A DNA stretch of 64,000 nt from Squalus acanthias (Eukaryota), in contig CM059431.1 in assembly GCA_030390025.1 (NCBI GenBank), positions 148,678,001 to 148,742,000 of the forward strand, in the 5' to 3' direction. How positions within the stretch are numbered: the stretch's first letter is position 1; every line of letters starts with the position of its first letter. The translations under genes were made by a program, and so were the position numbers. Below the pieces are notes generated by a model that saw only the letters and a list, made by a program, of their open reading frames with translations, was not told the DNA's origin and made no database searches. Of the stretch, positions 12,201 through 58,570 are shown piece after piece.

Positions 12201-13540
12201 ATTGAGCTGCCAATCTTGCCCCTCCCTCATCCATGTCTCCGTGATCGCAACAATATCATAATCCCATTTGTTTATCAACACCTTCAGTTCATCCACCTTA
12301 TTCGATAGAGTCATTGCATTAAAATAGATGCCTCCCAGCCTTGCTCTTACATCTTTGCCCTTTCTTCCAAGCTGACTTGTTTTTTTTCTCTATATTTTAC
12401 TGTACATCACCCCCTATTGCAGTTCCACTCTGTATCCCATTCCCCTGCCAAGTTAGTTTAAAGCCCCCCCAACAGTGCTAGCAAACCTCCACGCAAGGAT
12501 ATTTGTCCCGCTCTGGTTCAGGTGCAAACCGTCCGACTTGTACACGTTCCACCTTCCACAGAAGCAGGCCCAGTGATCCAGGAAACTAAAACCCTCCCTC
12601 CTGCAAAAACTCTTTAGCCACGCATTCATCTGTTCTATCCTCCTGTCAGTTGTGAAGAGTTTATGAAGAGGCTTCAAGGGGATCTCGACAGGCTCAGCGA
12701 GTGGGCGAGGATATGGCAGATAGAATATAGCGTGGATAAGTGTGAAGTTATCCACTTTGGTAGAAAAAACAGAAATGCAGAGTATTTCCAAAATGTTGAA
12801 AGTTTGGGGAATTCAAATGCTCAAAGGGTCCTGGTTGTCCTTGTACATGAGTCACTGAAAGTGCAGGTGCAGCTAGCCATTAGTAAGGCAAATGGTATGC
12901 TGGCTTTCATTACAAGAGCATTTGAGTACAGGAGTAAAGAAGTCTCACTCCAATTATATTGGGCCTTGTTGATACCACACCTGGAGTACAGTGTAGAAGT
13001 TTGGTCTCCTTACCTAAGGAAGGATATACTTGTCATAGAGGGTGTGCAACGAAGGTTCACGAGATTGATTCCTGGGATGGGAGGACTGTTGTATGAGAAG
13101 AGATTAAGTAAACTAGGCATGTATTCACTTGAATTCTGAAGAATGAGAGGGGATCTCATTGGAGCATACAAAATTATTACAGGGCTTGATAGGCTGGATG
13201 CTTGGAGAATGTTTCCCTTTGCTGGGGATTCTAGAACCAGGAGCCACAGCCTCAAGATAAAGGGTAGGCCATTCAGGACTGAGATGAGAACAAATTTCTT
13301 CACACAGAGGGTGGTGAATCTTTGGAATTCTCTACCCCATAGGGCTGTGGAGCTCAATCATTGGGTATATTCAAAACATAAGTCGCTAGACTTATGACAA
13401 CTAAAGGCATCAAGGGATATGGCGATAGGGCCGGTGAATTGAGTTGAGGCAGAAGATCAGCCATGATCTTATTGAATGGCGCAGCAGGATCGAACTGCCG
13501 TATGGCCTACTCCTGCTCCTATTTCTTATGTTCTTATGTT
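9231..13540 (+). mobile_element. CR1 3' fragment (9231-9445 and 12645-13540) split by an antisense CR1
   Basis: SKFADDTKLGG before the insertion resumes as RLQGDLDRLSEWA after it; TTCTTATG tail near 13522-13540. Confidence 0.85.
9446..12644 (-). mobile_element. CR1, 5'-truncated within ORF1, ORF2 frameshifted
   Basis: ORF1 end DGLHLN..ALN*, endonuclease (AITETW, MGDFNFP), RT; CTATGACT tail. Confidence 0.93.
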
Positions 13541-16010: not shown

Positions 16011-19000
16011 GAGAGGCTGAGATACAAAGTGAGTGTGAGTAAAAAGTAATCGAAGTTTGACGTCACCAGAAAGCAGGTAAGTGATTGGTTGGTGAGTATT
16101 TCTCTATTTCTCGTTTTTTTTTCCAAACTTGAGCGTCTAAAAACTAATTAATTAATTGAGATTGGAGAAAAGGCAATGTGTTGTTGCTGTTGCATGTGGG
16201 AGCTGGTGGACACCATTGAGGTCCAAGGCGACCACATCTGCAGCAAATGATGGCTGCTCGAGGAACTTTGGCTCAGAGTTGATGATCTGGAGTCCGAGCT
16301 TCAGACACTGCGACACATTAGGGAGGGGGAACGTTTCCTGGACACTATGCTCCAGGAGGCAGTCACACCCACTAAATAATTACTTCCAATTTGGCCCATG
16401 GTCAGGGACAAGAGGGTGTGATTAAAAGCGAGGCAGGTATTGGGATCCAGGAAGTAGTGGTGGAGGAGCCTCAGCCCATGGCCATATCCAACAGCTATGA
16501 TATTCCTGCTCCCTGTGTGGAATTGGCCAGGGACTGCAGGGAGGATGAGCAAACTGACCACAACACCGTGGTACAGGGAGCCATTCAAGTGGAGGGAGCA
16601 AAAATAAATGTTGTAGTGATGGGGGACAGTATAGTGAGTAGGATAGATATAGTTCTCTGCAGCCGACAGCGTGAGTCCCGAAGGCTGTGTTGCCTGCTCG
16701 GTGCCAGGGTTAAGGACATATCCTCTGAGCTGGAGAGAAACTTGAAGTGAGAAGGGGAAGATCCAGTTGTCATGATCCACATAGGTACCAATGACATATG
16801 TAGGCCAAAGAAAGAGGTTCTGCTGACAGAGTATGAGCAGCTAGAGGCTAAATTAAAAAAGCAGAAACACAAAGGTAATAATCTCTGGATGACTACCTGA
16901 GCCACGAGCGAATTTGCATAGGGAAAATAAGATCAGATAAATGAACGAGTGTCTCAAAGACTGATGTGAGAGAAATGGGTTTTGATTTGTGGGGCACTGG
17001 CACCATTACTGGGATAAGGGGGAGCTGCTCCGTTTGAACGGGCTTCACTTGAACCATGCTGGGGCTAGATTCCTGGCGAACCGAATAACTAGAGCTTAGA
17101 GAGGGCTTCAAACTAAATAGTGGGGGGGAGGATCCAGGTGAGCGGGAAAATAAGAAGTCAATGAGAAATGAGAAAGCAATAGAGCAGGTTAGAGATGGGG
17201 GAAATAATAACCAGACTGTGATAGGAAGGGACAGAATGCTTAAAAATGAGTGCAACAGAAAAAAAGGCCAAAACAAGGAAAATGTTAATAAAGACAAAGT
17301 TAGAAGTTCTTTATCTGAATGCACGCAGCATTCGTAACAAGATAGATGACTTGACGGCTCAATTAGATACAAATGTGTGAGATCTGATCGCCATTACAGA
17401 GACGTGGTTGCAAGGCGACCAGGGCTGGGAACTGAATATCCCAGGGTATATGACAATTCGGAAGGCTAGAAAGAAAGGAAAGGGTGGTGGGGTTGCTTTC
17501 TTGTTAAAAGTTGGGATCAGTGCAGTGGTGACAAGTGATATTGGCTCAGAATATCAAGATGTAGAACCGGTTTGGGTGTAGATAAAAAATAATAAGTGGG
17601 AAAAGTCTCTTGTCGGCGTAGTCTACAGGCCCCCGATCACTAGCAATGCTGTTGGACAGAGTATAAATCAACAAATAATGGTAGCCTATAAAAAAGGTAC
17701 GGTAATAATCATGGGTGATTTTAATCTCCATATTGATTGTACAAATCAAATTGGCCATGGTAGCCTGGAGGAGGAATTCATAGAGTGCATCCGGGATGTT
17801 TCCTAGAACAGTATGTAATGGAACCAACCAGGGAGCAGGCTATCTTGGATCTGGTACTATGTAATGAGACAAAATTAATAAATGATCTCATAGTAAAGGA
17901 TCCTCTAGGAAAGAGTGATCATAGTATGGTTGAATTTCAAATTCAGTTGGAGGCTGAGAAAGTTGTATCCCAAACCAGTGTACAGATCTTAAACAATGGC
18001 AAATAAAATGTCATGAGGCAGAACTGGCTAAAGTGGACTGGAAAAACAAATTAAAGGGTAAGGAAGATGAATTGCACTGGGTGACATTTAAGGAGATATT
18101 TCCTAACGCTCAACAAAAATATATTCCAGTGAGAAAGAAAGATTTTAAGAGAAAAGTGCACAATCCGTTGCTAACTAAGAAAGTAAAGGATGGTATCAAA
18201 TTGAAAGCGAAGGCGTACAATATTGCCAAGATTGGTGGGGGACCAGAGGATTGGCATTTTTTTTAAAAACCAGCAAAGGATGACTAAAAAAATAATAAAG
18301 AGAGAGAAGATGAATTATGAGATTCAGCTGGCAAGAAACATTAAAACAGGTAGTAAGAGCTCCGACAGATATATAAAGAGGAAGAGGAACGCTAAAGTAA
18401 ACGTTGTTCTCTTAGAGGATGAGACTGGGGAATTAATAGAGGTTAATGTAACACCCCTATTTAAGAAAGTGGGGAGACAGAAAGCAGGAAACTATAGGCC
18501 AGTTAGCCTAACAGCTGCTGTTTGGAAAATGCTGGAGTCCTTCAATAAGGAAGCAGTTGCATGGCTTTAGAAAAACATACTGTAGTCAAACAGATTCAGC
18601 ATGAATTTAGGAAAAGGAAATCATGTTTAACAAATTTGCTGGATTTCTTTGAGGATGTAACACGCAGGTTGGACAAGGGTGAGTAAGTGGATGTGGTGCA
18701 TTTGGATTTCCAAAAGGCATTCTATAAGGTGCCTCATAAAAGGTTACTGCATAAACTAAGAGCTCACGGAGTTGGCGGTAACATATTGGCATGGATAGAG
18801 AATTGGCTAACTAACAGAAAACAGAGATTCTGGATAAATGGCTCAGTTTCTGGTTGGCAAACGGTAACTAGTGGAGTGCCACAGGGATCGGTGCTGGGGC
18901 CTCAACTATTTACAATCTACATAAACGACTTGGATGAAGGGACCTAGTTGAATGTAGCCACGTTTGCGGATGATACAAAGATGGGTGGGAAAGTTGTGCA

Positions 19001-19890
19001 GATGACTCAAAGAATCTGCAAAGGGATATTGACAGGTTAGTTGAGTGGGCAAAAAATGGCCAGATGGAGTATAATGTGGGAAAGTGCGAGGTTATCGACT
19101 TTGGCAGGAAAAATAAAAAAGCAAACCATTATTTTGATGGAGAGAGATTACAAAATGCTACATTTCAGAGGGACCTCTGGGTCATTGTGCATGAAACAAA
19201 AAAGGTTAGCATGCAGGTACAGCAAATAATCAAAAAGGCAAATGGAATGTTGGCCTTTATTGCAAAGGGGTTGGAGTATGAAAGCAGTGACGTCCTGGTA
19301 CAACTGTACAAGTTATTGTTGAGACCACACCTGGAGTACTGCGTACAGTTTTGGTCTCCTGATTTAAGGAAGGATATAATTGCATTGGAGGCAGTTCAGA
19401 GACGCTTCTCTAGTTTAATTCCAGATATGAGGGGGTTGACGAATGAGGAAAGGTTGAGCAGGCTGGGCCTGTACTAATTGGAATTTAGATAAATGAGTGG
19501 TGATCTCATCGAAACATATAAGATACTGAAGGGTCTCGAAAGGATAAGTGCACAGAGGATGTTTCCCCTCGTGGGGAAATCTGGACCTCGGGGCTACAGT
19601 CTCAGAATAAAGGGTCGCCCTTTTAGAACTGAGATGAGGAGGAACTTCTTCCCTCAGAGGGTCGTAAATCTGTGGAATTTTCTGCTCCAGAGAGCTGTGG
19701 CGACTGAGTCATTAAATACATTTAAAGTGGATATAGAAACATTTTTGCAAGATAAGGGAGTGAAGGGTTATGAGGAGTGGGCTGCGGAGGGTCTTTGAGC
19801 CCAAGCTCAGCCATGATCTTATTGAATGGCGGAGCAGGCTAGAGTGGCCAAGTGGCATATCCCTGATGCTATTTCTTATGTTCTTATGAT
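15630..19890 (+). mobile_element. Near full-length decayed CR1 with a tandem-repeat 5' UTR
   Basis: ORF1 SGNH remnants (VVMGDSIV, LCCL.GARV, IHIGTND), endonuclease and RT remnants with an internal deletion near 18440, TTCTTATG tail. Confidence 0.9.
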
Positions 19891-26321: not shown

Positions 26322-29300
26322 GATCATAGAATCATAGAATATAGGAGCAGGAGTAGGCCATTCGGCCACTCTAGCCTGCTCCAGCATTCAATGCGAATAT
26401 GGCTGATCATCCAAATTCAGTACCCTGTCCCTGCTTTCTCCCCATATCCCTTGATCCCTTTAGCCTTAAGAAATATATCTAACTCCTTCTTGAATCTATT
26501 TAATGAATTGGCCTCTACTGCCTTCTGTGGCAGAGAATTCCACAGTTTTACCTCTCTCTGGGTGAAGAAATTCCTCCTCATTTCTGTCCTAAATGGCTTA
26601 CCCCTTAGCCTTAGAATGTGACACTTGGTTCTGGACTCCCCGACCATCGGGAACATCCTTCCTGCTTCTAGTTTGGCCTGTCCTGTCAGAATTTTATATG
26701 TTTCAATGAGATCCCTTCTCATTCTTCGAAACTCCAGCGAGTATAAGCCCAATCGACCCAATCTCTCTTCATACGTCATTCCTGCCATCCCAGGTATCAG
26801 CCTTGTGAATCTTCGCTTCACTCCTTCCATGGCAAGAACATCCTTCCTCAGAAAAGGCGACCAAAACTGCGCACACTACTCAAGGTGTGGTCCCACCAAG
26901 GCCCTGTACAACTGCAGCAAGACATCCTTGTTCATGTACTCAAACCCTCTCGCTATGAAGGCCAAAAAACATTGGCCTTCTTAAACGCCTGCTGCACCTG
27001 CATGCTTACCTTCAGCGACTGGTGCACAACGACACCCAGGTCTCGTTGCACCTCCCCTTCAACCAATCTATTGACATTTAGATAATAGTCTGCCTTTCTG
27101 TTTTAGACACCAAAGTGGATAACCTCGCATTTATCAACGTTATAATGCATCTGCCACGCTTCTGCCCAATCACCCAACCTTTCCAAATCATCCTGGAGTT
27201 TCTCGGCATCCTGCTCGCAGCACACACGCCCACCCAGTTTTGTGTCGTCAGCAAACATGGAGATATTACATCGAGTTCCCTTGTCTCGATCATTAATATA
27301 TATTGTGAATAGCTGTGGTCCAAGGACCGATCCCTGCGTTACCCCGCTCGTCACTGCCTGTCACTCGGATAAAGACCCGGTTATTCCAATTCTTTGCTTT
27401 CTGTCTGCCAAACAGTTCTCTATCCAAGGCAATACCTTGCCCACAATCCCATGTGCCTTAACTTTACACGCTAATCTCTTATGCGGGACTTTATCAAAAG
27501 CCTTTTGGAAGTCGAAATACACCACATCGACTGGTTTTTGCTTATCTATTTTTCCAGTTACATCCTCAAAAAACTCCAGTTGATTCGTCAAGCATGATTT
27601 ACCTTTTGTAAATCCATGTTGACTTTGACCGATCCTGTCACTGTTTTCCAAGTGCTCAGCTATTACATTTTTTATAATGGACTCAAGCGTCTTTCCCACT
27701 ACCGATGTCAGGCTTACCGGTCTGTAATTCCCCGTTTTCTCTCGACCACGCTTTTTGAATATTGCGGTAATATTAGCTACCCTCCAATCCATGAGTACTG
27801 CTCCAGATTCCATCGAATGTTGGAAGATGATCAGCAATGCATATACTATTTCTAGGGCCACTTCCTTAAGTACCCTAGGATGTAGATTATCAGGCCCTGG
27901 GGATTTATCGGCCTTCAATCCCTTCAATTTCCCTAACACCATTTCCCTACAAATATTGATTTATTTCAGTTCCTCCCTTTCATCAGACCCTCTGTTCCCC
28001 AATATCTCTGGGAGGTTATTTCAGTCCTCCAATGTGAAGACAGAATTAAAATATGTATTTAATTGGTCTGACATTTCTTCTTCCCCCATTATAGGTTCCC
28101 TGATTCTGACTGCAAGTACCTATGCTTGATTTCACTAATCTTTTTCTCTTCACATATCTATAAAAGCTTTTAAACTCAGTTTTTATGTTCCCTGAAAGCT
28201 TACTCTCATAATCTATTTTCCCCTTCTTAATTAATCCCTTTGTCCTCATTTGTTGTATCTTAAACTACTCCCAATCCTCAGGGTTACTGCTTTTTCTGGC
28301 AAATAATATGTCCTCTCCTTGGATCTTATGCTATGCCTAATTTCCCTTGTTAGCCACGGTTGAGTCACCCTTTTTTGTTTTAACCTCATGCCAAATTTGG
28401 ATGAACAAATTCTACAGTTCGTCCATGCGGTCTTTCAATGTTTGCCATTGCATATTAACCGTCAACACTTTGAGTGACATTACTCAATCAATCCTGCCCA
28501 ACTCGCACCTCATGACATCGTAGTTTCCTTTAGTTAAATTCAGGACCCTAGTCTATGAGTCAACTACTTCACTCTACATCCGAATGAAGAATTCTATCAT
28601 ATTATGATCGCTCCGACCCAGGAGGCCTCGCAGAACAAGATTGCTAATTAATCCTTTCTCATTGCATATTACCCAGCCTAAGATAGCCTGATCTCTGGTT
28701 GGTTCCTCGACATATTGGTCCAGGAAACCATCCCGTAAACACTTCAGGAATTCCTCCTCCATAGTATTGTTACTAATTTGGTTAGCCCAATCTGTATGTA
28801 TATTAAAGTCACCCATGATGACTGCTGTGCCCTTATTCCACGCTTCCCTAATTTCCGTTTTAATGCCATCCCCAACCTCCGCATTACTGTTTGGAGGTCT
28901 ATATATCACTCCCACAAACGTTTTCTGCCCCTTGTTAATTCTCAGTTCAACCCATACAGATTCCACATCATCAGAGCTAATATCCTTCCTTCCAATTGTG
29001 TTAATCCTCTCTTTAACAAGCAATGTTACCCCACCTCCCTTTCCTGTTTGCCTATCTTTCCTGAATGTTGAGTACCCCTGGATGTTGAGTTCACAGCCTT
29101 GGCCACCCTGGAGTCATGTTTCGGTAATCCGAATCAAATCATATTCGTGTACCTCTATTTGCGCAGCTAATTCATCCACCTTGTTCCGAATGCTCCTTGC
29201 ATTAAGACAAAAAGCCATCAGGCTTGTTTTTTTAACGCTCTTAGACCTATTAGAATTAGTATTTACTGTTGCCACTTTTGATTTAAATCGTTGCTTTCTC

Positions 29301-29730
29301 TGACTGCCACTTTTGTTTTTTCTCATTCCTATCTTTTGCTATTATCATTGTTTCCCTTTCCTCTGACTCCCTGCTCAGGTACCCAACCCCCTGCCATTTT
29401 AGTTGAACCACTCCCCCTAGTACATCGGTCCCGGCCCTGCCCAGATGTAGACCGTCTGGTTTGTACTGGTCCCACCTCCCCCTGAACCGGTTCTAATTAC
29501 CCAGGAATTTGAATCCCTCCCCTTTGCACCATTCCTCTAGCCACGTATTCATTTGAAATATCCTTCTATTTCTACTCTGACTCGCACGTGGCACTGGTAG
29601 CAATCCTGAGATTACTACTTTTGAGGACCTATTTTTTAATTTACCTCCTAACTCCCTGCTTTTAGGACCTCATCCCGTTCTTACTCCCCTTCGAAAATGC
29701 TCTGTAGCCGCTATGAGACATCCTTGACCA
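26322..29730 (-). mobile_element. CR1, 5'-truncated in ORF1, decayed
   Basis: [42 protein letters not shown] tail at 26322. Confidence 0.93.
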
Positions 29731-47720: not shown

Positions 47721-47915
47721 TTTAAAGTGCGGGACGCAGTGGTTGCTGGGTAGGTGATTAATTTTTACCTGTATATAAGTTGGGCGGTTCCTAAACCCGA
47801 GACACTACACTTGTAGTGTCCCCCACCTTTCCTCCTCCTCTAACCTAAAGGAGGTGAGTGACTATCAGGTAAGCTCTTTTTTGTTCTAGTTTAATCTGCA
47901 AGTTAGCTGGAGGGG

Positions 47916-48842
47916 ATGGCAGGGGAGGCAGTGAAATGTTCCTCCTGCAGAATGTTTGAGCTGAGGGACGCCGTAGGTGTCCCTGCTGATTACACCTGTG
48001 GGAAGTGCACCCATCTCCAGCTCCTCGAAAACCGTGTTAGGGAACTGGAGCTGGAGCTGGATGAACTTCGGATCATTCGGGAGGCAGAGGAGGTCATTGA
48101 TAGAAGCTTCAGCGATGTAATTACTCCAAAGCATGAAGATAGATGTGTGACGGTGAGAGGGGCTAGGAGGAAGCAGTCAGTGCAGGGATCCTCTGTGGTC
48201 GTTCCCCTCAGTAACAGGTATACCGCTTTGAATACTGTTGACGGGGACGACTTACCAGTGGTAAGCCACGGTGACCGGATCTCCGGCGCTGGGTCCGTCC
48301 CTGTGGCTCAGAAGGGAAGGGGGGAGAGCAGGAGAGCAATAGTTATTGGGGACTCAATAGTCAGAGGGACAGATAGGAGGTTCTGTGGCAGCAAAAGAGA
48401 CTCACGGATGGTATGTTGCCTCCCGGGTTCCAGGGTCCGTGACGTCTCGGACCGTGTTTTCAGAATCCTCAAAGGGGAAGGGGAACAATCACAAGTCGTG
48501 GTACACATCGGTACCAACGACATAGGTAGGAGAAGGGACGGGGATTTAAAACAGGAATTTAGGGAGCTAGGTTGGAAGCTGAGAGCCAGTACAAACCATG
48601 TTGTAATTTCTGGTTTGTTGCCGCAGCCACGTGCTAGCGAGTTGAGGAACAGGGAGAGAGTCCAGATAAACACGTGGCTGCAGGGATGGTGTAGGCGGGA
48701 GGGTTTCAGTTATGTGGAGAATTGGAGCACATTCTGGGGAAGGTGGGACCTGTACAAACAGGACGGTTTGCACCTGAACCAGAGGGGCACCAATATTCTG
48801 GGAGGGAAATTTGCTACGGCTCTTCGGGGGGGTTTAAACTAA
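47916..48842 (+). CDS. CR1 ORF1p (Cys motif, coiled coil, SGNH esterase-like domain)
   Basis: CSSC..CGKC, heptad leucines, IGDSIV, HIGTND, DGLHLN. Confidence 0.93.
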   Translation: MAGEAVKCSSCRMFELRDAVGVPADYTCGKCTHLQLLENRVRELELELDELRIIREAEEVIDRSFSDVITPKHEDRCVTVRGARRKQSVQGSSVVVPLSNRYTALNTVDGDDLPVVSHGDRISGAGSVPVAQKGRGESRRAIVIGDSIVRGTDRRFCGSKRDSRMVCCLPGSRVRDVSDRVFRILKGEGEQSQVVVHIGTNDIGRRRDGDLKQEFRELGWKLRASTNHVVISGLLPQPRASELRNRERVQINTWLQGWCRREGFSYVENWSTFWGRWDLYKQDGLHLNQRGTNILGGKFATALRGGLN

Positions 48843-51739
48843 TTTGTCAGGGGGATGGGAAAAAGGGCTGTAGTCCACGAGCCAGTGGTGAGTGTAGGGA
48901 GGTACTGAGGAGGGTATCAAGGTCGCAGGAATGTACCGGCAGACAGGAAGATGGCTTGAAGTGTGTCTACTTCAATGCAAGGAGCATCCGGAATAAGGTG
49001 GGAGAACTTGGAGCGTGGATTGGTACTTGGGAATACGATGTGGTGGCCATTACGGAGACATGGTTAGAACAGGGACAGGAATGGTTGTTGGAAGTTCTGG
49101 GGTATAGATGTTTCAGTAAGAGTAGGGAAGTTGGTAAGAAAGGTGGAGGAGTAGCATTGTTAATCAAGGATAGTTTAACAGCGGCAGAAAGGCAGTTCGA
49201 GGGGGATCTGCCGTCTGAGGTAATATGGGCTGAAGTTAGAAATAGGAAAGGAGCGGTCACGTTGTTAGGAGTTTTCTACAGGCCCCCAAATAGTAATAAA
49301 GATGTGGAGGAAGAAATTGCAAAGCAGATTATGAATAGGTGTGGAGGTCACAGAGTAGTTGTCATGGGTGACTTCAACTTTCCAAATATTGATTGGAACC
49401 TTTATAGGTCAAACAGTTCGGATGGGATAGTTTTTGCACAGTGTGTGCAGGAGGGTTTCCTGACACAATATGTGGATAGGCCGACAAGAGGTGGGGCCAC
49501 GTTGGATTTGGTACTGGGTAATGAACCGGGCCAAGTGTTTGATTTGTATGTGGGAGAGCACTTTGGAGATAGTAACCACAATTCGGTAACTTTCACTATT
49601 GCAATGGAGAGGGATAGGGCCATACGGCAGGGCAGGGTTCATAATTGGGGGAGGGGTAATTATGATGCGATGAGGCAAGAATTAGGGAGTATAAGATGGG
49701 AACAGAAACTATCAGGGAAAGGCACAAACGAAAAGTGGAGCTTTTTCATGGAGCAATTACTGCGTGTCCTTGATAGGTATGTCCCTGTCAGGCAGGGAGG
49801 AGATGGCCGAGTGAGAGAACCATGGTTCACAAAAGAGGTTGAATGTCTAGTCAAGAGGAAAAAGGAAGCGTATGTAAGGATGAGAAAACAAGGTTCAGTT
49901 GGGTCGATTGAGGGGTACAAGGTAGCAAGGAATGAGCTAAAAAAAGAGCTTAAGAGAGCTAGGAGGGGGCATGAGAAGTCCTTGGCGGGTCGGATCAAGA
50001 AAAACCCCAAGGCTTTTTACTCTTATGTGATAAATAAAAGAATGACCCGGGTGAGGGTAGGGCCGGTCAAGGACAGTAGTGGGAACTTGTGCATGGAGTC
50101 AGAAGAGATAGGAGAGGTGATGAATGAATACTTTTCGTCAGTGTTCACCGAGGAGAGGGGCCATGTTCTTGAGGATGAGAGTGTGATAAAGGTGGATAGG
50201 CTGGAGGTGGTAGATGTTCTGAGGGAAGATGTTTTAGCAATTTTGAAGAACCTGAGGGTCGATAAGTCCCCTGGGCCAGATGGGATATATCCTAGGATTC
50301 TTTGGGAGGCAAGGGAGGAGATTGCAGAGCCTCTGGCTTTGATCTTTGGGTCCTCACTGTCCACGGGGATGGTGCCAGAGGACTGGAGAGTGGCGAATGT
50401 TGTTCCTCTCTTCAAGAAAGGAAATTGGAATGACCCTGGTAATTATAGGCCGGTTAGTCTTACTTCGGTGGTTGGTAAGATAATGGAAAAGGTACTGAGG
50501 GATAGGATTTATGACCATTTGGAAAGGGGCAACTTAATCAGGGATAGTCAACACGGATTCGTGAAGGGTAAGTCTTGCCTAACAAATTTGATTGAATTAT
50601 TTGAGGAGGTAACTAAGTGTGTAGATGAAGGTAGAGCAGTTGATGTCGTATACATGGATTTTAGTAAGGCGTTTGATAAGGTTCCCCATGGTCGTCTCAT
50701 GAAGAAAGTAAGGAGTTGTGGGATAGAGGGAAATTTGGCCGATTGGATAAGTAACTGGCTATCTCATAGAAGGCAGAGGGTGGTGGTGGATGGAACATTT
50801 TCGGACTGGAGACCAGTTACCAGCGGTGTGCCACAGGGGTCGGTGCTGGGTCCTCTGCTGTTTGTGATTTTTATCAATGACTTGGAGGAGGGGACTGAAG
50901 GGTGGATTAGTAAATTTGCTGATGACACCAAGATTGGTGGAGTAGTGGATGAGGTGGAGGGCAGTTGTAGGCTGCAAAGAGACATTGATAGGATGCAGAG
51001 CTGGGCCGAAAAATGGCAGATGGAATTTAACCCTGATAAGTGCGAGGTGATTCATTTTGGTAGGTCAAATTTGAATAAGGATTACAGGGTCAACGGCAGG
51101 GTTCTGAGGAACGTGGAGGAGCAGAGGGATCTGGGGGTTCATATCCACAGATCTCTGAAGGTTGCCACTCAAGTGGATAGAGCAGTAAAGAAGGCCTATG
51201 GTGTGTTGGCGTTTATTAACAGAGGGTTTGAGTTTAAGAACCGTGAGGTTATGCTGCAACTGTACAGGACCTTGGTGAGACCACATTTGGAATATTGTGT
51301 GCAGTTCTGGTCACCTCACTATAGGAAGGACGTGGAAGCATTGGAAAGAGTGCAAAGGAGATTTACCAGGATGCTGCCTGATTTGGGGGGGAGGTCTTAT
51401 GAGGAAAGATTGAGGGAGTTGGGGCTTTTCTCTTTAGAGCGGAGCAGGATGAGAGGCGACTTAATAGAGGTTTATAAGATGATGAGGGGGATAGATAGAG
51501 TGGATTTTCAGAGACTATTTCCTCGGGTAGAGGCAGCTGTTACAAGGGGGCATAACTATAAGGTGCATGGGGGGAGATATAGAAGGGATGTCCGAGGTAG
51601 ATTCTTTACTCAGAGAGTGGTTGTGATGTTGAATGGACTGCCTGCTGTGATAGTGGAGTCGGACACTTTAGGAACTTTCAAGCGGTTATTGGATAAGCAC
51701 ATGGAGCACACCAGAGTGATAGGGAGTGTGATAGCTTGA
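48833..51739 (+). CDS. CR1 ORF2p (APE endonuclease plus reverse transcriptase); start shown at the ORF1 overlap because no early ATG exists
   Basis: FNARS, AITETW, GDFN, SNHN, YMDFSKAFD, QGSVLGP, FADD; uninterrupted frame. Confidence 0.93.
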   Translation, partial: FKLICQGDGKKGCSPRASGECREVLRRVSRSQECTGRQEDGLKCVYFNARSIRNKVGELGAWIGTWEYDVVAITETWLEQGQEWLLEVLGYRCFSKSREVGKKGGGVALLIKDSLTAAERQFEGDLPSEVIWAEVRNRKGAVTLLGVFYRPPNSNKDVEEEIAKQIMNRCGGHRVVVMGDFNFPNIDWNLYRSNSSDGIVFAQCVQEGFLTQYVDRPTRGGATLDLVLGNEPGQVFDLYVGEHFGDSNHNSVTFTIAMERDRAIRQGRVHNWGRGNYDAMRQELGSIRWEQKLSGKGTNEKWSFFMEQLLRVLDRYVPVRQGGDGRVREPWFTKEVECLVKRKKEAYVRMRKQGSVGSIEGYKVARNELKKELKRARRGHEKSLAGRIKKNPKAFYSYVINKRMTRVRVGPVKDSSGNLCMESEEIGEVMNEYFSSVFTEERGHVLEDESVIKVDRLEVVDVLREDVLAILKNLRVDKSPGPDGIYPRILWEAREEIAEPLALIFGSSLSTGMVPEDWRVANVVPLFKKGNWNDPGNYRPVSLTSVVGKIMEKVLRDRIYDHLERGNLIRDSQHGFVKGKSCLTNLIELFEEVTKCVDEGRAVDVVYMDFSKAFDKVPHGRLMKKVRSCGIEGNLADWISNWLSHRRQRVVVDGTFSDWRPVTSGVPQGSVLGPLLFVIFINDLEEGTEGWISKFADDTKIGGVVDEVEGSCRLQRDIDRMQSWAEKWQMEFNPDKCEVIHFGRSNLNKDYRVNGRVLRNVEEQRDLGVHIHRSLKVATQVDRAVKKAYGVLAFINRGFEFKNREVMLQLYRTLVRPHLEYCVQFWSPHYRKDVEALERVQRRFTRMLPDLGGRSYEERLRELGLFSLERSRMRGDLIEVYKMMRGIDRVDFQRLFPRVEAAVTRGHNYKVHGGRYRRDVRGRFFTQRVVVMLNGLPAVIVESDTLGTFKRLLDKHMEHTRVIGSVIA

Positions 51740-51823
51740 TCTTGGTCTCGGACAATGCTCGGCACAACATCGAGGGCCGAAGGGCCTGTACTGTGCTGTA
51801 CTGTTCTATGTATCTATGTATCT

Positions 51824-52919: not shown

Positions 52920-54999
52920 GATAAGAACATTAGAAAATAATAAGTAAGAACATGACTAGGCCAAACTACCCGTCGAACCTGCTCCGACATTCAATAAGAT
53001 CATGGCTATCATTAATCTCAAATCCACTTTCCGGCACAATCTCCATATCCATTGATTCGCCTACAATCCAAATATCTATCGAACTCAGTCTTGACTATAC
53101 TCAAAGACTCAGCATTCACAGCCCTCTGGTGCAGACAATTCCAAAAATTCACAACCCTCTGAGTGAAGAAATTCCTCCTCATCTCAGTCTTAAATGGCCT
53201 ACCCATTTTCCTGAGTCTATGCCCCCTAGTGCTAGACACTCTAGCCAGGGGAAACACCCAATCAGCATCTACCCTGTCAATCCCCTTCAGAATCGTGTAT
53301 GTTTCAACGAGATCACCTGTCATTCGTCTAAACTCCAGAGATTATAGGCCCATTCTACACAATCTCTCAACATAGGACAACCCTCTTTTCCCAGGAATCA
53401 ATCTACTGAACCTTCGTTGCATGGCCTCCAATGCAAGTATATCCTTCCTTAGATAAGAAGAATAAAACTTTTCACAGTAGTCCAGGTGTGTTCTCACTAA
53501 GGCCCTATACAATTGTAGCAAAAATTCCTTAGTCTTATACTCCAACCGCTTGCAATAAATGCCAACATGCCATTTGCCATCCTTATTGCTAGCTGTACCT
53601 GCATGCTAGCTGTCTGTGTTCCTTGCACGAGGACACGCAAATCTTTCTGAACACCAACATTTAAAAGTTTCTAACCACTGAAAAAACATTCTGCTTTTCT
53701 ATTCTTCCTTCCAAAGTGAATAACCTCTCATTTCCTGCATTATACTCCATCTGGCAAATATTTTTATTCGTTTATGGGATCAGGGCTTCGGTGGCAATGC
53801 CAACATTTATTGCCAATCCCTGGTTGCCCTTGAGAAGGTGGTGGTGAACAGCGTTCTTGAAACGAAGCAGTCCATGTGGTGAAGTTCCTCCCACAGTGCT
53901 GTTACGGAGGGAGTTCCAGGAATTAGACCCAGCGACGATGAAGGATCGGCGATATACTTCTTACTCAGGATGCTTTGTGACTTGGAGTGGAACTTGGAGT
54001 TGGTGGTGTTCCCATGAGCCTGCTGCCCTTGTCCTTCTAGGTGGAAAAGTTCGCGGGTTTGGGAGATGCTGCCGAAGAAGCCTTTGGGAGTTGCTGCAGT
54101 GCATTTCGTAGATGGTACACACTGCGGCCACGGTAAAGCGGTGGTATACGGAGTAAATGTTTAATGTGCTGAATGGGGTGCCAATCAAGCGGGCTGCTTT
54201 GCCTGGATGGTGTCGAGCTTCTTGAGTGTTGTTGGAGCTGCACTCATCCAGGCCCCCCTCACTTTGTCCAGTTATATCCCTTTGCAGACTCTTTGTGTTC
54301 TCCTCGCAGCTTACTTTCCCACCTAGCATTGTATCATCAGCAAACTTGGATACATTAAACTCGGTCCCTTCATCTGGATCATTAATATAGATTGCAAATA
54401 ACTGAGGCCTCAACACTGATCCTTGTGGCACACCACTAATTACAGCTTTCCAACCTGAAAAAGATTCTTCTATCCCTACTCTCTCTTTTCTGTCCGTTAA
54501 CGAATCCTCTATCCATGCTATTATATTCCTATCAACCCCGTGAGCCCTATCTTGTATTATAAACTTTTATGTGGCACCATATGGAATACGCTTTGGAAAT
54601 CCAAATATAGTACATCCACTGATTCCCTTTCATAAAACCATGTTGAATCTGCCTAATCATGTTTGATTTTTTAACTGCTTTGATACCACTTCCTTAACAA
54701 TGGATTTCAGCATTTTACCAACGACTGATGTCAGGCCTGTAGTTCTGCCTCCTTTCTTGAATAGTGCGGTTACCTTTGCGATCTTCCAATCCGGTGGGAC
54801 CAATAAACAATCTAGGGAATTTTGGAAGATCATAATCAAAGTATCCACTATCTCTTCAGACTCCTCTTTTAGAACCATAGGATGTATGCCTTCAGGTCCA
54901 GAGGATTTGTTGGCTTTTAATGCCATTCGTTTCTCTGGTACTTTTAGTCTACTTATATTAATTACGTTAATTTCCTCACCCTCATTAAACCCTTGGATT
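52920..54999 (-). mobile_element. Decayed CR1 RT/3' fragment
   Basis: GP.G.HP.VLKE, PQGSVL.PQLF, FADD, GDL.ETY.ILKG; tail near 52920. Confidence 0.88.
53760..54254 (-). mobile_element. Second LINE family 3' end inserted in a CR1
   Basis: Homologous to 30975-31470; KAARLIGTP. Confidence 0.82.
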
Positions 55000-57122: not shown

Positions 57123-58570
57123 TTTTAAATAAATCTGTTGTCTATAACATGGTGTTGTGCGACTTCTCATTTTTGTCCACCCCAGTCCAGCACCGGCATC
57201 TCCGCATCGTAATTAATATAAGTAGAGCAAAAGTAATAGAGAAATTAGTGGGACTAAAAGCTGACAAATACCCTGGACCTGACGGCCTACATCCTAGGGC
57301 TTTAAAAGAAATGGCTGAAGAGATAGTGGATGCATTGGTTTTGATCTTCCAAAATTCCCTAGAATCTGGAATGGTCCCAGCGGATTGGAAGGTCGCAAAT
57401 GTAACACTGCTATTCAAGAAAGGAGTGACAAAAAAACAGGGAACTACTGGCCAGTTAGCCTGACATCAGTCGACGTGAACATTCTGGAATCCATTGTTAT
57501 GGAAGTGGTATCAAGTCATTTAGAAAAGCATAACATGATTAGGCAGAGTCAACATGGTTTTTTGAAAGAAATCGTGTTTGACAACTTTTATTAGAATTTT
57601 TGGAAGATGTAACTAGCAGGGTAGTTAAAGGGGAACCAGTGAATGTAATATATTTGGGTTTCCAAAAGGCATTCGATAAGATGCCATATAAAAGGTTATT
57701 GCACAAGATTTGGACTCATGGGGTTGGGGGTAATATAATAGCATGGATAAAGGATTGGTTATCGGACAGAAAACAGAGAGTAGGGATAAACGGATCTTTT
57801 TCAGTTAGGCAGGATGTAACTATTGGGGTGCCGCAAGGTTCAGTTTTGGGTACTCAGCTATTTACAATCTTTATTAATGACCTAGATGAAGGAACCGAGC
57901 GTAATGTATCCAAGTTTGCTGATGATACCAACGCTAGGTGGGACAGTATGCTGTGAGGAGAACACAAAGAGCCTGCAAAGGCATATAGATATGCTAAGAG
58001 AATGGGCAGTAAGATGACAGATGGAGTATAATGTTGTGAAATGTGAGGTTATTGATTTTGGTGCGAAGATTGGAAAAACAGAATAATTTTTAAATGCTGA
58101 GAAACTTTCAGATGTTGGTGTTCAGAGAGTGTTGGGTGTCCTCGTGCGAGAAACACAGAAAGCTAGCATGCTGGTACAGCAAGCAATAAGGAAGGCAAAT
58201 TGTATGTTGCCCTTTATCGCAAGTGTTTCGAGTATAAGAGTAAGAATGCCTTGCTATAATTGTACAGGGTCTTAGTGTGACCACACCTGGAGTACAATGC
58301 ACTGATTTGGTTTCCTTAGCTAAGGAAAGATATCCTTGCAATGGAGACAGTATAACGAAGGTTCACTATATTGATTCCTGGGATGAGAGGGCTGTCCTTT
58401 TTGAAAGATTGTGCAGAATGGGCCAAAACTCTCTGGTGTTTAGAAGAATGAGGGGTGATCTCATTGAAACATACAAGATTCTGAAGGGGATAGACAGGGT
58501 AGCTGCTGAGAGGTTGTTCTCCTGGCTGGAGTTTCAGGATCTATGGTACATTGTTTCGGGATAAGGGGTA

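Follow-up and report, generated by a model that had tools for sequence, protein, structure and literature searches.

A conserved slippery heptamer at the ORF1–ORF2 junction of CR1 LINEs points to programmed -1 ribosomal frameshifting

The stretch of 64,000 nucleotides (nt) analyzed here—hereafter the window—comes from Squalus acanthias (assembly GCA_030390025.1, contig CM059431.1, positions 148,678,001 to 148,742,000 of the forward strand) and bears a long interspersed nuclear element (LINE) of the CR1 group, whose open reading frame (ORF) 1 ends in the slippery heptamer U_UUA_AAC. Sequence comparison makes it highly likely that programmed -1 ribosomal frameshifting at this heptamer yields an ORF1–ORF2 fusion protein of ~1,274 amino acids (aa; 308 + 966). 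The heptamer site is kept from cartilaginous fishes through reptiles, and also in animal CR1 lineages that are farther removed. Three hallmarks of a canonical -1 signal are found: the heptamer is in phase, a long ORF lies open in the -1 frame, and the site is conserved at synonymous positions. A first-pass annotation of the window had suggested a gag-pol-like fusion; the conservation of the heptamer and its exchange for other valid heptamers support such a putative product.

The CR1 element and its ORF1–ORF2 junction

The element and its junction comprise the following features:

~47.7–51.8 kb, plus strand: CR1 LINE with ORF1 and ORF2 both open
47916..48842, plus strand: CR1 ORF1, 308 aa from its ATG, with a Cys-rich/coiled-coil N-terminus, an SGNH esterase and the C-terminus Gly-Leu-Asn-stop
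48830..48836, plus strand: second canonical heptamer G_GGT_TTA, overlapping the first in the same phase
48833..48839, plus strand: slippery heptamer T_TTA_AAC (U_UUA_AAC), in X_XXY_YYZ phase relative to ORF1
48840..48842, plus strand: ORF1 stop TAA, adjoining the heptamer on its 3′ side; relatives have TAG or TGA here
48850..48859, plus strand: conserved G-run GGGGGATGGG, beginning 10 nt past the heptamer, a candidate non-structural stimulator
48695..51739, plus strand: CR1 ORF2 in the -1 frame, with linker, apurinic/apyrimidinic-type (APE) endonuclease (NARS 48974, ITET 49049) and reverse transcriptase (RT)

Direct reading of the sequence shows the ORF1 frame open over 47907–48842, with its ATG at 47916. 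ORF1 matches the SGNH esterase family PF13472 (E 3.8e-12), and its profile matches the ORF1 esterase structure of ZfL2-1 (4c1b, E 3e-41). A predicted model carries a long helix at residues 32–72; the nearest named homologs come from sharks and rays. ORF2 matches PF03372 and PF00078, corresponding to an APE endonuclease followed by the RT. Two features of the CR1 clade are thus present—an esterase ORF1 and an ORF2 with APE endonuclease, then RT—and the element was assigned to CR1 because its junction resembles rows named CR1 in the part of the supplement of a 2026 CR1 survey (PMC13343379) that is used below. A quick RT tree, which includes no named CR1 reference, was not used for ordering events.

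The final codons of ORF1 are GGT TTA AAC TAA, while the -1 frame across the heptamer reads TTT AAA CTA and stays open, giving ORF2 966 codons from CTA 48839 and a -1 frame of 968 codons from the heptamer. The first in-frame ATG of ORF2, at 49331, is codon 166 from the heptamer and lies past both the NARS and the ITET motif; 10 out-of-frame AUGs lie between the ORF1 stop and this position. The AUG at 48855, inside the G-run, is in the ORF1 frame and hence out of frame for ORF2. The phase of the heptamer and the late ORF2 start codon had both been pointed out by the first-pass annotation and are seen directly. The overlapping G_GGT_TTA and the 10 out-of-frame AUGs go beyond what that annotation had listed. 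G_GGT_TTA is confined to families ending in Gly-Leu-Asn, and families with GCT-TTA-AAC do not carry it.

Conservation of the heptamer across elements

Junction DNA of further elements was taken from eukaryotic sequence inside metagenome and metagenome-assembled genome (MAG) records, found via protein motifs elsewhere in the element. The ORF1 ends were located by hidden Markov model (HMM) and first stop, independently of the heptamer, or for L002 by motif and tblastn position. Among the HMM-located ends, T_TTA_AAC followed directly by a stop is present in the element described above, in a second CR1 of the window, in L004, L051 and L101, and in 16 of 17 distinct G001 copies; L001 bears G_TTA_AAC-stop at this position. 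ORF2 proteins of six of these elements are 28–64% identical.

Over the 70 terminal codons of ORF1, six elements share 11 other conserved columns, 10 of which—the catalytic D-G-x-H-L among them—are encoded by mixed synonymous codons, whereas ORF1 closes with TTA AAC in all six. The codon-column script was anchored on the heptamer, the same six ends having been located beforehand without it. TTA accounts for 3/112 to 16/38 of the background Leu codons across elements, and for TTA combined with AAC the background chance comes to ~1e-7 when the six lineages are treated as independent, which they are not fully.

Some families carry a different heptamer. T_TTT_TTA stands in phase, one codon before the stop and with the -1 frame open to NARS, in L052 and in a G006 family (both ending F-L-x-stop); 5 of 7 copies of the latter keep it, and 3 are open in the -1 frame to NARS without Met. 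L053 shares ~80% DNA identity with the G006 family and adjoins the window elements in the quick RT tree (support 91). Such heptamer changes, with the X_XXY_YYZ grammar and the phase kept, are what selection for slippage predicts, and neither a fixed binding site nor a protein motif would be expected to show them. The -1 frame is open into ORF2 for 973 codons in L001 and 1006 codons in L002, and 10 of 15 scorable G001 copies are in the -1 register, the others being shifted. No in-frame AUG precedes the NAR motif in the intact window element, L056, L101 or three open G006 copies. Distant esterase elements and bacterial esterases (L003, L006, L009, L011–L013, L019, L033 and others) do not carry the motif, and the heptamer signal is therefore clade-limited.

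Contigs of four sequencing runs, which carry no expression information, were compared with positions 48660–49040. Among the differences listed, none falls in 48827–48877, and 28 of 40 fall in 48755–48826 or in upstream-dense blocks; diverged contigs stop aligning at 48855–48861. The conservation of 48827–48877 seen in these contigs is weak evidence, because only part of the differences is listed and the alignment ends are biased. A search for long natural ORF1–ORF2 fusions returned one protein, P0260. This protein as well as the chimeric P0041 and P0074 were rejected as evidence of recoding: they are probably copies fused by indel, which merely show the -1 frame (FKL...NARS).

Published consensus sequences of vertebrate CR1-group elements extend the comparison. 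For the PMC13343379 supplement the comparison covered the first 400 nt per sequence, with junctions classified by eye; the rows are gappy and were not used for reading-frame tests. ORF1 ends make up 17 of 33 matches to 'ttaaacta' and 1 of 6 to 'ttaaactga'. These 18 junctions span chimaera, sharks, rays, bowfin, teleost (a row labelled Crack), coelacanth, frog, crocodilians and lizard. The base before TTA lies outside the query and is T in every one of them, making all 18 T_TTA_AAC; the stop that follows is TAA, TAG or TGA. Synonymous variants of the junction gave 35 matches in the part of the rows covered (14 + 15 + 6), none of them at a junction; TTA-AAT-TAA lay outside these queries, as did Leu codons other than TTA ahead of AAT or TGA. 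A query anchored on the G-run gave nine matches, namely seven CR1 junctions (six with the full heptamer, one ending inside it) and two G-rich L2 rows. The nucleotide-level conservation that had been named as a check of the proposal is hence observed, with the heptamer kept at synonymous positions across the diverged elements and in the vertebrate consensus sequences. Motif matches in the portion covered of the Suh 2014 supplement (PMC4316615) mark an unrelated site close to where ORF2 ends on its 3′ side and were left out of the count.

Conservation of the ORF1 C-terminus

Among proteins, Leu-Asn (LN) forms the C-terminus of 49 of 74 ORF1 homologs, many of the remainder being fragments, and the terminal Asn is one of eight invariant columns in an alignment of 41 ORF1 sequences. 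C-termini were scored among the best 150 representatives at 50% clustering, 92 of which are scorable by a DGxH-like catalytic motif 20–45 aa from the end. A final dipeptide that a canonical heptamer can encode is found in 59 of these 92 (47 LN, 10 GN, 2 KN), compared with 2–14 at other offsets. Snake, turtles, monitor lizard, eel and sturgeon are among the named LN-enders.

The residue preceding LN is one without a T-ending codon (Q/E/K/M/W) in 1 of 58 cases against a background of ~20%, and Gln precedes GN in 9 of 10, which matches what a G_GGA_AAC read back from protein would demand. These preferences fit the presumed T_TTA_AAC and G_GGA_AAC. A DNA search for families ending in QGN or SKN gave no usable junction, three matches not being LINE ORF1s. 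Neither a single ORF1 protein query in viral and genome contigs nor an ORF1 alignment query in viral contigs returned anything.

Leu-Asn might be kept because the esterase needs it at its C-terminus, with the codons simply inherited by descent. The last helix of the predicted model reaches residue 310, so that Leu310 could be packed, while the predicted local distance difference test score (pLDDT) of Asn311 is 34. The solved ZfL2-1 construct is without LN, aligning only to profile position 306 of 310, and the catalytic DGxH and LN are between about 25 and 39 aa apart, depending on the protein; LN is therefore, by this alignment, dispensable for the esterase fold. A constraint on the protein would also have to account for mixed codons in the catalytic motif next to unmixed TTA AAC. 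The synonymous-codon counts largely refute it, and we give it hardly any weight.

The G-run downstream of the heptamer

A run of at least four G begins 7–10 nt past the heptamer in 7 of 7 DNA junctions (chance per 8-nt window 0.6–7.7%), and a hand count places a G-run 6–13 nt past it in 13 of 18 consensus rows of the supplement portion covered. The Gly codon of the -1 frame at the G-run is GGG in 6 of 6, against a background of 16–37%. An intramolecular quadruplex is not general, because L056 has one single G-run, and the data favor a single G-run over a quadruplex; natural G-quadruplex stimulators of frameshifting were not yet known according to the available text of a 2016 frameshifting review. 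In L052 (480–540), U_UUU_UUA precedes a hairpin (z -2.1, matched by 6 of 200 shuffles)—the sole junction here with a classical stimulator.

Given the sequence around the G-run, splicing might also supply ORF2, with CTAAT as branch point and TTTGTCAG (to 48850) as acceptor. The window sequence CTAATTTGTCAG indeed looks like a 3′ splice site, with donor-like motifs present in the 5′ untranslated region (5′UTR). However, the spacing from branch point to AG would be only ~8 nt, the branch motif is lost in families whose ORF1 ends in TAG, several families are without the AG, and the first AUG past it is out of frame. Splicing is hence a most improbable source of ORF2.

Proposed mechanism and alternatives

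Most ribosomes would terminate at TAA and release the 308-aa esterase ORF1 protein (ORF1p). In a minority, the tRNA-Leu and tRNA-Asn occupying U_UUA_AAC would slip back by one base in a tandem slippage that bypasses the stop, and these ribosomes would enter ORF2 at CTA 48839 and continue through a short variable linker into endonuclease and RT. The fusion would thereby be made at a set low ratio, similar to Gag-Pol. On mammalian ribosomes, U_UUA_AAC and G_GGA_AAC belong to the heptamers most prone to shifting, and G_UU(A) is tolerated (excerpts of PMC5009743 and PMC3542737). More speculatively, the pause might come from the stop codon next to the heptamer, from a factor that acts on the G-run ~10 nt downstream, or from both; we infer that the adjoining stop may aid slippage.

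Several observations weigh against frameshifting. Canonical -1 frameshifting is defined with a structure 5–9 nt downstream of the heptamer (an excerpt of PMC3542737), and such a canonical 3′ stimulatory structure is absent from the predicted folds. Local folding gives z -0.16 for the intact window element and -1.3 to +0.5 in six of six TTA_AAC junctions, pseudoknots not being explicitly modelled, and z +0.7 for the U_UUU_UUA junction of G006. An Rfam search of the junction gave no match, no conserved long-range pairing partner was found among the DNA junctions compared, and a G-quadruplex is predicted in only one of four window copies, a decayed one. Hence, the likeness to the coronavirus signal, as seen by the first-pass annotation, holds for the heptamer and breaks down at the canonical 3′ RNA structure. 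Furthermore, the counts come from related lineages and not from independent events, and G_GGA_AAC and A_AAA_AAC are backed by protein sequence only, because no DNA of the QGN and SKN families was recovered. In the consensus rows covered, a TAATG stop–start overlap occurs in 3 of 17 TAA/TAG junctions, and similar 8–10-mers occur in four CR1 5′UTR rows. Finally, in-frame AUGs stand upstream of the endonuclease in L001, L002 and L004, as well as in the chimeric proteins P0041, P0074 and P0260.

Some of these points bear on how ORF2 might otherwise be translated. The ORF2 of L1, another LINE, tolerates the loss of its AUG. Termination-coupled reinitiation could restart translation in the -1 frame at a codon overlapping the stop—TAATG, or a non-AUG codon such as ATT 48842—and would release a separate ORF2 protein (ORF2p), as in SART1 or L1. 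Reinitiation has been proposed for both of these elements, and its viral versions tolerate non-AUG restarts (excerpts of PMC5972666 and PMC2881922). A restart at the stop would fix the -1 register, and the three TAATG overlaps as well as the AUGs of L001, L002 and L004 fit with it. On the contrary, it leaves unexplained why the 7 nt before the stop obey the X_XXY_YYZ grammar and are swapped for valid heptamers, and why in the U_UUU_UUA families the heptamer sits one codon from the stop. UAAUG is absent from the intact window element and from all seven DNA junctions (0/7), no AUG is conserved, and the codon overlapping the stop varies (ATT, ACT, GTT, GGT, GTA, others). The UGGGA of a termination upstream ribosome-binding site (TURBS) is missing in 3 of 7 junctions and scattered elsewhere (-41/-96, -108, -30, -79). 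We consider reinitiation unlikely as the general route, yet frameshifting and reinitiation could both operate side by side in AUG-bearing lineages.

The AUGs of L001, L002 and L004 might also reflect a lineage-specific AUG initiation or scanning reinitiation of ORF2, the heptamer being kept for another role in RNA or DNA, such as a protein-binding site or a site of recombination for ORF1 exchange. The look-alike motifs in the four 5′UTR rows would agree with such a role. These AUGs are, however, not at conserved positions (codons 4, 22, 28), none is present in the intact window element, L056, L101 or the G006 copies, and in the window element ten out-of-frame AUGs come first. Nor would a binding site be expected to alternate between U_UUA_AAC and U_UUU_UUA with the phase kept. 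This combination is very unlikely, even more so than reinitiation at the stop, and frameshifting at the heptamer remains the reading we prefer.

Relation to known systems

With coronavirus signals of the infectious bronchitis virus (IBV) type, U_UUA_AAC, and with retroviral gag-pol, CR1 shares the in-phase heptamer at the end of ORF1, the long polymerase ORF in the -1 frame and a C-terminally extended fusion (excerpts of PMC3542737 and PMC5009743). In contrast to these, CR1 is a retrotransposon lacking long terminal repeats (non-LTR) and has no predicted stem–loop or pseudoknot at 5–9 nt, but an adjoining stop and a G-run at ~+10 nt instead. The arterivirus nsp2TF and cardiovirus frameshifts are stimulated by a trans-acting protein and use spacers of 11–14 nt (an excerpt of PMC5009743). 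The G-run of CR1 stands at a similar distance; the likeness is one of spacing, CR1 having no known factor of this sort.

As a kind of mechanism, frameshifting is no novelty among non-LTR elements, because it has been stated for TRE5-A and TRE3-A and for some Penelope-like elements. For the former, APE-type non-LTR elements of Dictyostelium, a figure legend of a review states that a -1 frameshift is required for ORF2 translation (PMC5911963). CR1 belongs to another clade and another host, and combines an esterase ORF1 with a site conserved across vertebrates. In Penelope-like elements a frameshift accompanied by a pseudoknot can set ORF1 apart (a legend in PMC8557442), and some of them carry the same esterase (an excerpt of PMC3905857). 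Yet those are GIY-YIG elements and not APE LINEs, and the pseudoknot reported there has no counterpart found in CR1. L1 and SART1 resemble CR1 in having a bicistronic LINE RNA and an ORF2 output that depends on ORF1 translation (excerpts of PMC2881922 and PMC5972666). They make a separate ORF2p, from a spacer in L1 and from a UAAUG overlap in SART1, whereas CR1 is without a conserved AUG and keeps the heptamer.

In the open literature no statement of frameshifting in CR1 was found; the 1997–2003 CR1 papers (chicken, turtle) and Repbase notes, which lie outside that search, may mention the overlap. The words frameshift, overlap and translation do not occur in the available main text of the 2026 survey (PMC13343379), frameshifting is not mentioned in the available text of the esterase structure paper (PMC3905857), and CR1 is not mentioned in that of the 2016 review. 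Reviews present LINE ORF2 translation as reinitiation, drawing on L1 and SART1.

In most vertebrates, CR1-group elements dominate among the retrotransposons (PMC13343379). If CR1 does frameshift, its enzyme would be a Gag-Pol-like fusion with an esterase ORF1p, which would alter models of CR1 particle assembly; ORF2 annotations that miss the endonuclease N-terminus would be explained; and CR1 would offer a deeply conserved natural -1 signal without RNA structure. A farther-reaching picture is tentative, and we would sooner doubt than adopt it as a whole. Here, -1 frameshifting in CR1 would predate the vertebrate radiation, and a structure-free signal—heptamer, adjoining stop and G-run at +10 nt—would be read by a trans-acting protein, possibly ORF1p. 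Endonuclease and RT would always be tethered to the coiled-coil esterase, and recoding would be general for ORF2 in this LINE group, by frameshift in CR1 and by stop readthrough in sister esterase LINEs.

Further copies in the window

The exact 10-mer TTTAAACTAA of heptamer and stop occurs twice in the window, against 0.08 expected. Three further junctions are present:

12453..12462, minus strand: heptamer and TAA of a second, decayed CR1 of another subfamily, terminating a homologous ORF1
17107..17116, plus strand: decayed junction T_TCA_AAC TAA of a third CR1
29399..29409, minus strand: decayed junction GGTTCAACTAA after a deletion, in a fourth CR1

Since the site at 12453–12462 terminates a homologous ORF1, the two 10-mers are homologous sites and not independent chance matches. 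All three junctions had been picked out by the first-pass annotation: the second 10-mer is exact, and the other two are real and homologous, decayed to different degrees. The downstream G-tracts it reported are likewise present, in four of four window copies.

About a dozen further truncated or decayed fragments of LINE ORF2 lie in the window, including 595–1720, 18445–19768, 26447–29260, 53048–54977 and 57209–58531. The 5′UTR of the intact CR1 (47745–47920) contains the splice-donor-like motifs GGTAGGT, GGTGAGT and GGTAAG as well as a TAG-terminated pyrimidine tract ahead of the ORF1 ATG. Motifs like these are also present in a copy at 16075–16110 and in published shark CR1 5′UTRs, which might point to a 5′UTR intron. 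The ORF1 start context GGGGATGG (47910–47920) matches the G-run after the ORF1 stop (48849–48859), probably by coincidence. The AUG in the G-run opens a zero-frame ORF of 17 codons, and a short TCTATGTA-type repeat is visible near 51805–51822, beyond the end of ORF2.

Related esterase LINEs and CR1-like elements

In nine distant esterase LINEs of G003 (L155, L157, L159, L161, L163, L165, L166, L168, L169), ORF2 lies in the same frame as ORF1 behind a single TAG (TAG-G in 7 of 9). The ORF2 frame is open for 87–168 codons before the endonuclease, two of the nine are without any AUG, and most bear GGCA(T/C)TACTGCC-like inverted repeats 6 nt past the stop. These LINEs might form a candidate class of stop-codon readthrough. 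In further esterase LINEs (L003, L006, L009, L012, L019), a single TGA or TAG stop separates ORF1 from an in-frame ORF2.

Two CR1-like elements with a non-esterase ORF1 open a -1 ORF2 at other in-phase heptamers: A_AAT_TTA directly before TAG (L086:2156-2165) and T_TTT_TTA 180 nt before the stop (L071:1297-1303). Each is a single copy and could be due to chance. Animal LINE DNA is present as host contamination in many GTDB MAG records (L050–L129, G001, G003, G006) and in two NCBI bacterial entries (P0008, P0079). In the CR1 family of L051, the ORF1 (L051:1270-2403) has an SH3 domain (PF14604, E 5.5e-09) upstream of its esterase.

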